Positions 16,106-60,563 of a stretch of DNA of 60,563 nt are shown here, piece after piece. This DNA comes from an uncultured Candidatus Saccharibacteria bacterium (GTDB lineage: Bacteria; Patescibacteriota; Saccharimonadia; Saccharimonadales; UBA10212): positions 1 through 60,563 of the forward strand of contig CAZUXR010000003.1 in assembly GCA_964624785.1 (NCBI GenBank), in the 5' to 3' direction. Made by a program: the position numbers and the translations under genes. A model generated the notes under the pieces. It was given only the letters and a program-made list of their open reading frames with translations. It did not search any database and was not told the DNA's origin. Numbering within the stretch: the first letter of the stretch is position 1; every line of letters begins with the position of its first letter.

Positions 16106-17119
16106 CTAAAGTCTTCGGAGTTTGCGTCGAGCTGTTTCGAAACTGTATGTTAGTGGGTAAACTACAGGGTTAATAATGAGATCGTGTGCTGGCACATAAG
16201 CAACATCTTGTCCGCCGAAACCACGTTTAAAAACCGACACACCGTAGAATCGATGTTTTGTTTGCCCGTGATCGGTAATGCCCCAAAAGTTATACCGAGT
16301 GCAGCCGCGTTTTTTAGCCTCGGCAATTGCTTGCCACTGTATAGCATAAGCACCCGGGAATTTACGCGCTAGGTCCGTGCTGGCTCCGTAGTGATAAGCC
16401 GCCTCTTTGCCGTAAAAAATTATAAAAGCCATGGCGAGTAGTTGACCTTCATATGTGCTGCGGTATAAAAGTACTTTTCCGTCTTTGGCGAAAGCTTTAA
16501 ATTGTTCATTTAAAAACTTCTTGCTAAATGGCACAAATCCTTGTCGTTGCGCTGTAGCTAGCTGCAATTTATAGAACTCATCAATATCTTTAGTGTCGTT
16601 GCTGGATGAAACTTCTATGCCGAGCTTTGTCGAGCGGTTTATTTCGTATCGGGTGCCCTTTCGCATGGCGTGTTTTAATTCCTCTTCGGATAAGCTTAGA
16701 TTAAGCTGGCTGGTTAGGTCTGCCGTAGCGTGCATCGGGCTTTTGTGAAATCCAAGTTTACGAATGTTGGCACGATTCGACAGCATATCTAATAGTTGTG
16801 GCCGTAGACGCACAAAGATACATTTGTTATCGGCAGCAGCTTTTTTGACTGTATCTCGCCATTCGGTAACAATTTTTTGATCATTCCAGTCTAAAATAGG
16901 TCCACCTACGATAACCATATGGCGTCCGCGCCGTGCCGGTTCGATTACCCCCTGAGTAACGCCTACCAACTTGGAATTTTTATAAAACCCGTATCGCAGG
17001 ACTTTGTGCCCTAGGCTTTCGTGGAACTCACCCCAATTCCAGGAATGTAAAAAGTTGGCTTCCGGGTGGGTGGACATAAAATCCTCCCATTGTCGTTTAT
17101 CTTCTATGATTTTTGCCAT
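16106..17119 (-). CDS. FemABX-family aminoacyl-tRNA-dependent peptidyltransferase
   Basis: NFLHSWNWG, GGPILDW, TRYEINRS, AYHYGAS, YNFWGI, GVSVFKRGFGG; compact FemX-like size without coiled coil. Confidence 0.9.
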   Translation of the reverse strand: MAKIIEDKRQWEDFMSTHPEANFLHSWNWGEFHESLGHKVLRYGFYKNSKLVGVTQGVIEPARRGRHMVIVGGPILDWNDQKIVTEWRDTVKKAAADNKCIFVRLRPQLLDMLSNRANIRKLGFHKSPMHATADLTSQLNLSLSEEELKHAMRKGTRYEINRSTKLGIEVSSSNDTKDIDEFYKLQLATAQRQGFVPFSKKFLNEQFKAFAKDGKVLLYRSTYEGQLLAMAFIIFYGKEAAYHYGASTDLARKFPGAYAIQWQAIAEAKKRGCTRYNFWGITDHGQTKHRFYGVSVFKRGFGGQDVAYVPAHDLIINPVVYPLTYSFETARRKLRRL

Positions 17120-18285
17120 TGTTTGATCCTATCGCAAATTATTAGGGCAACATCTGGAGTTATGTGGCGGTGGGTTGGCAAGTTGATGAGTTTGCTCGCT
17201 ATCAACTCCGCCCTTGGGCATTGGCCGGTTTTATAGCTAGTCTTACCTAAATATTTCTTTGGACCTATTGGGGCATCATACCAAGTATCGCTGATGAAGA
17301 TTTTGTTTTTCCGTAAGTAGTTTAGCAGGGAAGAGCGATCAGGCACGAGTATAGGAAAACGCAAATACGACGATTTGCTTTTGGAGAGCGGTGTTATTAA
17401 TATGTCATCCGGCAGATTGTTGTGATAAATTTCCGCAATTTTTTGTCGATGTGATAATTCTTGGTTGCGGTATGGCCAGAGGTTTTTAACGATCAATTTA
17501 GCGGTGTGATTACTCATGGAGCATATGCTGTTTATTTCGCTAGCCATTGGCGTGGAAAGTAGCTTGAATCTTTTTAGAATGTAGTGCAAGGCTCGTCCTA
17601 GCCCAAAATCATAAGTATTACGAATTAGCATTGTCCAAAATGGGTAGAATCTATTTTTGGTGCGCGGCCAAGTCCCAGCTTTTGGCAGAGATATAAAACT
17701 ATCGGTCGCGTTGTTTGGGCGGCGATCAATCAATGCTCCGCCAGCTACGGCGTCGAGAGGCTTATCTTGACTAAATGACATCATCGTAAGCTCTCCAACT
17801 GTTCCCGCTTCTTCGCCGCTTGGATAAATCGCTCCAGAGCTATGCGCTAGATCTTCTATAATTATGATTTTTTCTTGCGAGCAATAATCCTTCAAGTATG
17901 CGATATTGGCAGGATATCCTAGGGTATTTTGTACTATAATGGCCTTCATATCCTTATTACGCCTAAGTTCGTCAATATCGAAATTGAGTTGTCTGGCAGC
18001 CAGATCTATCATGATTGGCTTTAGCCCTGCGCTTATAACAGCCTGGTAGACCACGTAGCAAGTCAGGCCGTTGATACCGACCGAGCTACCTGCTGGCAGA
18101 TGAATGCTCCTTAAAGCTAATTCTAAAGCATTGCGTCCTTTATATGTAAGAATTGCCTGGCCTTTGTAGTAACCGCCAAGTTCTTTAGCGAGCTCTTCGT
18201 AGTCTTTTTTGGAGCCGCCACCGATCAAATTCTTGAGGATAAAACCAGTTGAATAATTTGATCCTAGGGAATTAAAAACACTCAC
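17104..18285 (-). CDS. DegT/DnrJ/EryC1/StrS PLP-dependent aminotransferase family
   Basis: IEDLAHSSG, SFSQDK (PLP lysine), GGAL, LINLPTH. Confidence 0.85.
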   Translation of the reverse strand: MSVFNSLGSNYSTGFILKNLIGGGSKKDYEELAKELGGYYKGQAILTYKGRNALELALRSIHLPAGSSVGINGLTCYVVYQAVISAGLKPIMIDLAARQLNFDIDELRRNKDMKAIIVQNTLGYPANIAYLKDYCSQEKIIIIEDLAHSSGAIYPSGEEAGTVGELTMMSFSQDKPLDAVAGGALIDRRPNNATDSFISLPKAGTWPRTKNRFYPFWTMLIRNTYDFGLGRALHYILKRFKLLSTPMASEINSICSMSNHTAKLIVKNLWPYRNQELSHRQKIAEIYHNNLPDDILITPLSKSKSSYLRFPILVPDRSSLLNYLRKNKIFISDTWYDAPIGPKKYLGKTSYKTGQCPRAELIASKLINLPTHRHITPDVALIICDRIKQWQKS

Positions 18286-18980
18286 TTGCTGGCCTTAAGC
18301 GCGGAACTAATTATATCGGCAACTTGGCCGGGGTGGTTTTGGAACGGTGCATGGTGTGCACTTTCGATTACGTTGAAGCTGGAGTTTTGGATTAAACTAT
18401 GCATTTTTTGCCCATCAGCTAGCGGTGTAATTGTGTCCTCCTTACCCCAGATAATAGCCACAGGTAATTTAATGGTATTAAAATCTATGAGTTGATCGGC
18501 AGCTATCATATTGCGCATAGTTAGTTTCATGTTGTCCGATGCTTCGTAATAATCGCTAGCTTTAATAACTTTGTAGAAAAGTTTCTTAAGAGTAGGTGCG
18601 AGATTCAGAATTTTACCCGGCATCGAAAGTATTCGTAACATTTTGAGTTTAAATAGCCGCTTAAATTCCTGATGTGCAATTCCTGCGCTATCAATCAAGA
18701 TTAACTGATCGAGCCGTCCGGGGTATTTTTGTGCGTAAGACAGGGCGATTCGTCCTCCATTGGAGTGGCCGATAACGACTGGATTTTTGTAGTCTTTAAG
18801 TTGGTCATTGAGCCAGCCAATGTATCCGTTAATATCCCAGGTTTTGTCACTTGGTTCTGTTAAGCCGGGCACTCTTAACTGCACTGGCTCTATCCCCCGA
18901 ATTTTTAGCTCCCCAATCAAGGAGGTCCATTTATCCAGTGAATAGCTCCAGCCGTGAATTATGAATACCCGTTTGTTCAT
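18282..18980 (-). CDS. Alpha/beta hydrolase
   Basis: IHGW, GHSNGG nucleophile elbow, WGKEDTITP, HAP; ATGA overlap with upstream gene. Confidence 0.88.
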   Translation of the reverse strand: MNKRVFIIHGWSYSLDKWTSLIGELKIRGIEPVQLRVPGLTEPSDKTWDINGYIGWLNDQLKDYKNPVVIGHSNGGRIALSYAQKYPGRLDQLILIDSAGIAHQEFKRLFKLKMLRILSMPGKILNLAPTLKKLFYKVIKASDYYEASDNMKLTMRNMIAADQLIDFNTIKLPVAIIWGKEDTITPLADGQKMHSLIQNSSFNVIESAHHAPFQNHPGQVADIISSALKASK

Positions 18981-20248
18981 CGTGGTAACCCCCAGGCTTG
19001 ACGGCGTTTGATCCATGCTGCTTCGCGCCTTACAAGTTTTTTTGCATCGCTAGAGTCGGCAAGTAGCTGCTCGATCACTCCTTCTAGCCCCATAGCGCCT
19101 TTAAATAATATAACTTCTCCACCTTTTAAATTTTTTTGCATGTAGTCCAATACTTCTTTTGGACTCAGTAAGGATACGTTCGGAGGTTTGCTAGATTTTA
19201 GCAGAGGGTAAGTGTATTTATGGGTTCTGGAACCGAGTAGGATTATTTGCGCTACGCCAAGATCATTGATTTTTGTTGCTAATCTTTTGTGTTCGTCTTC
19301 CTCTAAGCTGCCTTGCTCCAGAATATCGCCGATCACTAGCCACTTTTTACTGGCAGCATAATTCTTAAAAAGATCAAACACGGCTATTGTTGCCCCCAAC
19401 CCAGTATTGTAAGTACTATCAATAAGGGTCGTTCCTCGCTTGCCCTTAAAGACAGAACTGCGACCAGGTGGCATGCGTAGCTTCTGGTAGTCAAAGTCGA
19501 AAGACATACCAAGATAGTCGAGTAGACTATTGACCATTTGAAGACTTATACCAAGTTCTTTTGGGTGCAGCCCAGCAAGACTGATTTTTTGTTGATTTAC
19601 CGTAAACAAAGTTCGACCACTTTCGAGCGAGTAAAATGAAACAGCCTTGCTGGATATTCGATCTACTCTTACGTCCTGGGCTACTCTGTTAAGTTGGCTT
19701 GCAATCTCTTCCTGGCCAGCATTCGCTATAACGAGTTTTTGGGCCGCTTCGGCAAAGTATCCAAACTCAGTCGCAATCGCCTCTTTATGATTAACAAAAT
19801 TTTTATTTTTTACGATAGAGTCAAAGTTCATGCTATGCGTATGGTAACTGTTAATCCATATGGTCACTTCTGGTTCGAGTAGCCGCGCCAAGAACTTGCC
19901 TTCGTTAGGACGATCGCAGTCAGCTTCTACGATGTAGAGTTTTTGAACAGGTGCTTTGCGTAGGGTTCTGATTGGGGCGAGCAGAAAACGGCTAGGCCAT
20001 TGAGCGCGCGAAGTTATTCCAGACATTCCTAGGATATGCATCGGGATACCGATGGCACTGTTAGCAAAATGGCTATAGTTGGCTTGCCCTCCAAGCTGGG
20101 CTTCCACTAGATGTAGTAGCGTGGTTTTCCCACTCGAACCGGTAATAACGATTATTCTTGGTTTCCACCTTTCGAGTACCAACTTGGCCCAGAATGCAAA
20201 GTAGCTGGCCACTACAAAGTACAGGCTTTTCTTTAATTTGCGGAGCAT
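18977..20248 (-). CDS. MurF-like Mur ligase
   Basis: ITGSSGKTT P-loop, PGRS, IDSTYN, IGDILEQG, ILFKG. Confidence 0.85.
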   Translation of the reverse strand: MLRKLKKSLYFVVASYFAFWAKLVLERWKPRIIVITGSSGKTTLLHLVEAQLGGQANYSHFANSAIGIPMHILGMSGITSRAQWPSRFLLAPIRTLRKAPVQKLYIVEADCDRPNEGKFLARLLEPEVTIWINSYHTHSMNFDSIVKNKNFVNHKEAIATEFGYFAEAAQKLVIANAGQEEIASQLNRVAQDVRVDRISSKAVSFYSLESGRTLFTVNQQKISLAGLHPKELGISLQMVNSLLDYLGMSFDFDYQKLRMPPGRSSVFKGKRGTTLIDSTYNTGLGATIAVFDLFKNYAASKKWLVIGDILEQGSLEEDEHKRLATKINDLGVAQIILLGSRTHKYTYPLLKSSKPPNVSLLSPKEVLDYMQKNLKGGEVILFKGAMGLEGVIEQLLADSSDAKKLVRREAAWIKRRQAWGLPR

Positions 20249-20276
20249 GTCTTCTATTTTAACTCACCGAGGGTAT

Positions 20277-20303
20277 AAAAACAGCCACTAAAGAAGTGGC
20301 TGT
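20277..20303 (-). terminator. Intrinsic terminator downstream of the minihelix RNA
   Basis: Minus strand ACAGCCAC-TTCTTTA-GTGGCTGT-TTTT. Confidence 0.75.
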
Positions 20304-20314
20304 CAGTGTTTTTC

Positions 20315-20352
20315 TGGTGGAGCAATTGCAGGTTTAAGCCTGCGCATGCCCC
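20315..20352 (-). ncRNA. Putative tRNA-Ala-like acceptor minihelix RNA (38 nt)
   Basis: GGGGCAUGCGCAGGCUUAAACCUGCAAUUGCUCCACCA: 6-bp acceptor stem with G3:U70, 5-bp distal stem, discriminator A and CCA; flanked by promoter and terminator. Confidence 0.7.
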
Positions 20353-20363
20353 ATAACGTTCCT

Positions 20364-20372
20364 ATCCTACCA
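20364..20372 (-). promoter_or_regulatory. Extended -10 promoter for the minihelix RNA
   Basis: TGG-TAGGAT, 11 nt upstream of G1. Confidence 0.55.
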
Positions 20373-60509: not shown

Positions 60510-60563
60510 GGGCCTGTAGCTCAGTTGGTTAGAGCAGCGGCCTCTTAAGCCGCGTGTCGAGGG
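60510..60563 (+). tRNA. tRNA-Lys(CUU), truncated by the window edge
   Basis: GGGCCTGTAGCTCAG...; GCGGC-CT-CTT-AA-GCCGC. Confidence 0.9.

Follow-up and report, generated by a model that had tools for sequence, protein, structure and literature searches.

Can a gene for an RNA of 38 nt, reduced to the acceptor end of an alanine tRNA, supply a cell with alanine for purposes other than translation? The question is raised by a short element in the window, by which we mean the whole analysed stretch of 60,563 nt of Candidatus Saccharibacteria DNA. The minus strand from 20352 to 20315 reads GGGGCATGCGCAGGCTTAAACCTGCAATTGCTCCACCA, as the original prediction had written it, and the fold claimed for it there was reproduced: a 6-bp acceptor stem, a 3x3 internal loop, a 5-bp stem with a 6-nt loop and an ACCA tail. 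The stem opens with G1-C72, G2-C71, G3.U70 and G4-C69, the discriminator is A73 and the CCA is encoded, and there is no D arm, anticodon arm or TPsiC loop. The folding energy is -18.6 kcal/mol, the fold takes up 92% of the ensemble (z -3.29), and one of 200 shuffled sequences was equally stable. As had been guessed, tRNA finders pass the element over: neither ARAGORN nor Rfam makes a call.

The signals that had been proposed around the element stood in part. The extended -10 motif does lie 11 nt before G1, but it was not called by the consensus promoter scanner; the hairpin with a short U run is present 11 nt past the CCA, but the scanner lists it as a terminator on the plus strand only. The last two bases of the leader are A(-2)T(-1). 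On the hairpin side, downstream of the CCA, the ATG of a MurF-like gene follows 66 nt beyond the element, which agrees with the gap to a co-directional Mur ligase that had been given.

Table 1. Features of the minihelix locus and loci of the three-arm form
Feature	Coordinates	Strand	Basis or remark
Alanine-acceptor minihelix RNA gene, 38 nt	20315..20352	-	Fold, family-model score of 34-37 bits and homologs
Extended -10 promoter-like motif TGnTAnnnT (TG-G-TAGGAT)	20364..20372	-	Ends 11 nt before G1
Terminator-like hairpin, 9-10 bp, 5-nt loop, then short U run	20277..20303	-	Starts 11 nt past CCA
MurF-like Mur ligase, 423 aa, first gene of the cassette	18977..20248	-	Pfam Mur_ligase_C; best NCBIfam model is murF, below cut-off
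Alpha/beta hydrolase, 244 aa	18282..19016	-	Cassette gene
DegT/DnrJ-family PLP enzyme, 393 aa	17104..18285	-	Cassette gene
FemABX-family aminoacyl-tRNA-dependent transferase, 337 aa	16106..17119	-	Pfam FemAB (PF02388), E 3e-42, 145 bits against a cut-off of 24
Three-arm 'mini-cloverleaf' loci	L126:7048-7110; L134, L135, L136, L137, L117, L118, L404		

Within one genome, shape alone is not decisive, since five stretches of the 844-kb assembly pass a filter for GGG..TCC-A-CCA with at least 6 bp, and relatives are therefore needed; it is the existence of a homologous family that places the element beyond chance. Homologs in relatives, on which the original prediction had made its case depend, were found. 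Among 40 relatives, four of the five close homologs of the Mur ligase have a minihelix RNA gene just upstream. When 301 genomes of the same order were searched by pattern, covariance model and targeted scans (the unpublished genome G277 enters solely as one non-carrier), 51 were carriers, 43 of a one-arm form and 8 of a three-arm form, distributed over 29 of 71 families. One exact subfamily pattern, searched against all species in GTDB, gave 88 matches, of which four (L322, L364, L386, L394) were left out as chance matches with poor folds; the 84 clean members, nearly all from records titled Saccharibacteria, include oral Nanosynbacter, TM7 oral taxon 350, rumen lineages and two complete genomes. 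The window's own subfamily has 11 matches in metagenomes, none of them more than about 170 nt away from the Mur ligase of the cassette. The expectation that the family would extend across Patescibacteria held for the class Saccharimonadia, where 7 members from other orders turned up when 111 genomes were searched with the model, but not for the phylum: a model search of 150 genomes returned no convincing member outside the order, its six weak matches being tRNA ends or lying within ORFs. A Mur ligase search for related loci across genome contigs confirmed none.

Several matches to the pattern or model (G088, G205, G058, G041, G125, G026 and G135/G166) were left out, being inside ORFs, unpaired or ambiguous. 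Model matches at 17-27 bits are mostly the 3' ends of tRNA-Ala or tmRNA, and one at 22-25 bits with a promoter-like motif upstream (G116) was retained by eye. The alanine-acceptor minihelix genes apparently make up an undescribed family of the class Saccharimonadia. Our literature search, to which subscription journals and supplements were out of scope, found no description of this RNA or of any gene-encoded minihelix; no such form is named among the atypical tRNA folds in section 39 of PMC9976931, and the word 'minihelix' is absent from the review PMC7609411.

The 126 loci, from search sets that overlap, represent 88 distinct sequences of 32-38 nt, 70 of them 36-37 nt long. Pairs 1 to 3 are G-C, G-C and G.U in all 88, pair 4 is G-C in 86 and G.U in 2, and pair 5, which occurs as five paired types, is also formed throughout. 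The acceptor stem, discriminator and CCA, and with them the alanine identity set (G3.U70, A73 and G2-C71), are thus present in 88 of 88, a figure partly fixed by the search patterns; the loops are mostly UUCG or GAAA. Both covarying stems and a conserved G3.U70, named beforehand as the support to look for, were found. In the model-fitted alignment, both partners vary in 10 of 14 pairs (score 0.44; controls 0.14 when shuffled and no more than 0.14 when the partners are slid), and in a plain MAFFT alignment the acceptor alone gives 0.44 against a control of 0.11. There, both sides of pair 5 change in 17 of 35 sequences, and the pair is never unpaired. A break in the helix is predicted after 5-10 bp in 82 of the 88 sequences, and after 6-9 bp in 77; the other six fold as unbroken helices of 12-14 bp.

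Because the search patterns fix the first four pairs, the alanine identity is partly forced, and we therefore ran an unconstrained scan around tRNA-Ala(TGC) in 88 genomes for all hairpins of 5 bp or more with an NCCA end. Assorted other hairpins were seen, and every tRNA-adjacent minihelix had alanine identity. In two genomes (G033 and G128) pair 4 was altered to G4.U69 with G3.U70 kept. The conservation of G3.U70 is not solely an artefact of the search patterns. Two other hairpin elements came to light. A long RNA-like hairpin is conserved between genes in five genomes (L296:1501-1557, L297:1489-1545, L158, L159, L165); it has no Rfam match at E 0.01, and one strand ends in a similar CCACCA. 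A 40-nt palindromic hairpin near a Fem cassette (L149:11660-11703, G128) reads ACCA on both strands and does not carry alanine identity.

The same data bear on whether the element could be a functionless relic, either an att scar or a copy of the acceptor stem of a neighbouring tRNA-Ala or ssrA. The element does share 7 nt at its 5' end and 10 nt at its 3' end with the tRNA-Ala(GGC) of this genome. However, at the 68 loci adjacent to tRNA-Ala(TGC), acceptor positions 5-7 differ from that tRNA in all 68, and the tmRNA model (RF00023) has no match at the locus, which is not a piece of tmRNA. The unconstrained scan found no minihelix copying the acceptor of the Ile or Val tRNAs beside which it looked in the 88 genomes. 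One metagenome copy is identical over all 38 nt while its flanks are unrelated and the protein of the adjoining ligase has diverged to 62% identity. With the tight length, the covarying stems and the fixed promoter spacing described below, these differences lead us to reject a relic or att scar, which we regard as scarcely credible. A further suggestion, that the 5' 13 nt are a remnant of the D stem of tRNA-Ala(GGC), was dropped because relatives vary there.

The genes are found in two main settings. In the first, they stand alone, mostly 50-170 nt from the cassette's Mur ligase, with variants that lie before murF-ddl (G195, G138) or directly after alaS (G301). Of 38 stand-alone loci, 26 have an extended -10 motif at 8-12 nt upstream, the distance being exactly 11 nt in 20; the same type of motif precedes 8 of the 36 tRNAs of this genome. 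In the second, the gene lies within the spacer of an rRNA operon, adjoining tRNA-Ala(TGC) or tRNA-Ile; for example, the order at one locus (L387) is 16S, tRNA, minihelix, tRNA, 23S. The synteny with the Fem operon that had been foreseen therefore applies to the stand-alone copies near a Mur/Fem cassette, but the commonest home of the genes is the rRNA spacer. Of the 84 clean GTDB members, 76 have AT immediately in front of G1 (a hand count, at positions that the pattern left free). RNase P prefers leaders of the A(-2)U(-1) type and cuts minihelices.

These positions could also suit a cis-acting element, such as an RNase P punctuation signal or the leader or attenuator of a downstream operon, given how often the RNA lies 50-170 nt upstream of a Mur ligase or between the tRNAs of an rRNA transcript. 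A cis leader is made unlikely by flips of orientation: relative to the Mur ligase the gene is reversed in G040, G132, G038 and G055 and in 2 of the 11 metagenome loci, the other 9 being co-directional. Many copies, moreover, have a terminator-like hairpin after them and are not located near Mur or rRNA genes, and a cleavage signal would not require G3.U70. We consider a role in cis highly improbable.

The three-arm form, found in 8 of the 301 genomes, is 59-68 nt long and has alanine identity. Its loops are only about 3-6 nt, there is no T-loop consensus and no anticodon arm, and the last of its arms is similar to the one-arm form's inner stem. All its carriers fall within a single Fem subclade, nested among carriers of the one-arm form in a Fem tree of 72 rows that came from a quick, unfinished search.

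The proposed user of the RNA is the FemABX-family protein of the cassette. It matches the structures 6snr (S. aureus lipid II glycyltransferase), 1lrz (FemA) and 1ne9 (FemX) in the PDB, and resembles FemX in length, without the staphylococcal insert. Its alignment with 6snr comes in two pieces that skip residues 230-293 of that structure, presumably the coiled coil; with FemX it is continuous and includes the VFK motif, whose FK we take to be catalytic. Against the FemX equivalog model, it scores 71, far below the cut-off of 500. In the window, ftsH and the ruvB region flank the cassette and the mini-gene (16106-20352); the majority of relatives carry the two close to ligA and tRNA-Ala(GGC), with leuS frequently downstream. 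Among 24 genomes of the same family a close Mur ligase occurs in G003 only; that genome has the cassette, and the searches found no minihelix member in it. The cassette and the RNA appear to have moved together. The assembly (G000, 96.5% complete) holds two MurF-like genes, one in the cassette on contig C3 and one on C6, as well as MurE and MurA; one query for a D-Ala-D-Ala ligase found none in it. At the end of the window (60510-60563) a tRNA gene truncated by the contig end matches the start of tRNA-Lys(CTT), and a partial repeat of the 3' end of tRNA-Arg(TCG) directly precedes it.

The link to Fem was examined by scoring a genome as Fem-positive when it encodes a FemAB homolog at E <= 1e-8, as 120 of the 301 do. 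Fem-positive genomes make up 48 of the 51 carriers and 72 of the 250 non-carriers, all of one order and, as kin, not independent. Because five of the three-arm genes came from inspecting the surroundings of Fem cassettes, and a sixth from a mostly Fem-positive set, the count for one-arm carriers, 40 of 43, is the fairer one. As kinship makes p-values overstate the association, we relied on contrasts within sets and within families. Among the 88 genomes in which the tRNA-Ala(TGC) locus is assembled, 27 of 39 Fem-positive genomes are carriers, against 1 of 49 Fem-negative ones; in 16 of the 17 informative families, carriers are more frequent among the Fem-positive genomes. A Pfam search for Fem in the 49 negatives together with G138 and G255 found none (0/51), and recovered all three positive controls. 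Carriers found afterwards, whose Fem status was not known beforehand, are Fem-positive in 19 of 20 cases (14/15 and 5/5), and the Fem proteins of carriers are 22-69% identical to that of the window.

Three carriers have no Fem that we could find. The assembly of one (G255) is 76% complete and its RNA lies at a contig end; that of another (G138) is 90% complete, and two congeners are Fem-positive. In the third (G182), the RNA is on a 2.1-kb contig whose spacer matches loci of other genomes at 88% over 344 nt, while against the genome's own second spacer the tRNAs alone match, which is suggestive, though only that, of a misbinned contig. Conversely, 72 of the 120 Fem-positive genomes show no member. 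The tRNA-Ala(TGC) locus was recovered in just 39 of the 120, and two known members (G301, G033) escaped the filtered searches and were recovered later; unassembled rRNA loci and filter losses account for some of these non-carriers. Nevertheless, the near-complete Fem-positive genomes G193, G091 and G284 yielded no member by model or loose pattern. The predicted Fem link therefore stands for the carriers, but Fem is not strictly dependent on the minihelix.

Near-exclusive presence in Fem-encoding genomes, shown by 48 of the 51 carriers and 19 of the 20 further ones, makes delivery of alanine to wall synthesis, and not to the ribosome, likely. Co-occurrence cannot separate Fem from co-inherited genes, and the same RNA evidence would suit a charged alanine carrier for some other non-ribosomal enzyme that co-occurs with Fem, such as an alanyl-lipid synthase or an envelope-modifying transferase; in many carriers the RNA is in the rRNA spacer, far from the fem genes. 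The association nevertheless spans Fem lineages that are 22-30% identical to each other's query, in unrelated gene contexts, and the protein neighbours of the RNA are mostly murF, ddl or the Fem cassette, so that we hold a different client enzyme to be unlikely. The reading that we prefer, and consider likely from the comparative evidence, is that the minihelix is an AlaRS-charged, ribosome-excluded, dedicated alanine donor for Fem wall synthesis.

Intact tRNA-Ala(GGC) and tRNA-Ala(CGC) and a one-piece tmRNA (G000:C2:11927-12333, L420; 87.6 bits in Rfam against a cut-off of 47) are encoded elsewhere in the genome, so both the intact tRNA-Ala and the ssrA that the original prediction had wished to see are accounted for, and RNase P RNA (G000:C9:16413-16805) and AlaRS are present. 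The two copies of tRNA-Ala(GGC) have different T stems (G000:C35:2832-2908 and G000:C28:1-73), and several near-duplicate tRNA-Met genes lie on small contigs, being paralogs or a strain mixture. ARAGORN at its default settings does not detect the tmRNA, whose T-loop region is non-canonical; relatives have similar 3' ends. The AlaRS (G000:C2:35025-36959, L251) ends after the editing domain and does not have C-Ala, as in all seven genomes examined (including L095 and L306-L310), where it is about 630-680 aa. We had considered this truncation as a co-adaptation to the minihelix and rejected the idea, since AlaRS is without C-Ala in five of five Fem-negative genomes too; for the same reason it is permissive, not specific.

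The exact retention of the AlaRS identity set, the gene directly after alaS in G301, and a position in rRNA operons that suggests high, growth-linked levels would also fit a trans-acting tRNA mimic, that is, a decoy or sensor titrating AlaRS, EF-Tu or tRNA-cutting toxins, or a buffer of the Ala-tRNA pool. Such a role leaves the near-confinement to Fem-encoding genomes and the co-movement with the Mur/Fem cassette without a reason, and the one subfamily pattern tested against viral contigs gave 0 matches there; we think it improbable.

For the dedicated donor, the following course can be proposed. The RNA would be transcribed either from the extended -10 promoter in front of the gene or within an rRNA operon, RNase P would trim the 5' end after the A(-2)U(-1) leader, and AlaRS, in the form without the elbow-binding C-Ala domain, would alanylate the product through G3.U70 and A73. 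Having no anticodon, it would be of no use to the ribosome, and capture by EF-Tu would probably be weaker because the helix is usually broken, according to the predicted folds, at the equivalents of T-stem pairs 49-65 to 51-63; the modelled unbroken forms of 12-14 bp might bind EF-Tu. Fem would read G1-C72 and G2-C71 and transfer alanine onto the peptidoglycan precursor, with the minihelix as an accessory supply and not an obligate cofactor. Parts of this course are described in the literature, as far as the sections consulted go. G3.U70 is the main determinant for AlaRS (PMC9976931), Weissella FemX depends on G1-C72 and G2-C71 (PMC2175331, PMC2655667), and a coupled AlaRS-FemX assay works with minihelices, a 24-nt microhelix and a 7+11-nt acceptor duplex (PMC2175331). 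The minihelix family keeps exactly the pairs read by AlaRS and FemX, while other positions drift. C-Ala favours tRNA containing an elbow and does not bind a microhelix (PMC8887476). EF-Tu reads T-stem pairs 49-65, 50-64 and 51-63 (PMC3239215), and by sequestering ordinary aminoacyl-tRNA it inhibits Fem (PMC7826273).

The class of minihelix genes is real and conserved, and its function is strongly suggested by the comparative sequence evidence. Record titles place the family, invisible to ARAGORN and Rfam, in Saccharibacteria from soil, water, rumen and the human mouth. Minihelices have served as the model substrate both in work on the acceptor-stem code and in thinking about how tRNA arose. 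On balance, we favour the view that this is a class of acceptor-only aminoacylated minihelices, free-standing and often co-transcribed with rRNA, which is charged through the 'operational code' of the acceptor stem alone and brings alanine to Fem wall synthesis outside translation. Nature would then offer, for the first time, an equivalent of the minihelix that figures in tRNA-origin models. The RNA is a derived reduction of tRNA-Ala, and not evidence for a surviving primordial RNA; if the reading is true, the three-arm variant shows arms gained or lost. The donor model predicts that the uncharacterised Fem enzymes of Saccharibacteria add alanine. The family opens the question of whether a cell uses a carrier with no anticodon, and of how Fem enzymes outside staphylococci obtain aminoacyl donors against competition by EF-Tu.

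Among known systems, the canonical tRNA family (RF00005) shares the acceptor stem, discriminator and CCA with the minihelix, which does not form its cloverleaf. The closest functional parallel may be drawn with the non-proteinogenic NP1-NP3 tRNA-Gly of staphylococci, which, in the parts of PMC7826273 consulted, are likewise extra tRNA-derived genes of Fem-encoding bacteria that keep their synthetase identity, and are proposed to avoid capture by EF-Tu and so to supply wall synthesis by FmhB, FemA and FemB. According to the same source, such tRNAs were at that time known from S. aureus and S. epidermidis alone, and they are full-length glycine cloverleafs with an anticodon, preferred by FmhB through determinants in the D and T arms; the Saccharibacteria RNAs, by contrast, are 32-38 or 59-68 nt long, with alanine identity and no anticodon arm. 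Not being a cloverleaf and having no anticodon, the minihelix falls outside the non-proteinogenic tRNAs. The synthetic tRNA-Ala minihelices of the AlaRS-FemX(Wv) assay come nearest in build, a tRNA top half of 35 nt beside the mode of 36-37 nt here, with G3.U70 for AlaRS and G1-C72/G2-C71 for FemX (as described in PMC2175331 and PMC2655667); they are laboratory constructs, whereas the Saccharibacteria minihelix is encoded in the genome, by a gene that is under purifying selection. The tRNA-like domain of tmRNA (RF00023) also combines alanine identity and a CCA end with the lack of an anticodon, but the minihelix has no mRNA-like domain, tag frame or pseudoknots, and a one-piece tmRNA exists elsewhere in the genome. 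Finally, the armless mitochondrial tRNAs described from nematodes and arachnids are, like the minihelix, very short, hairpin-like derivatives of tRNA; as described, these keep the anticodon arm and decode, whereas the minihelix keeps the other half.
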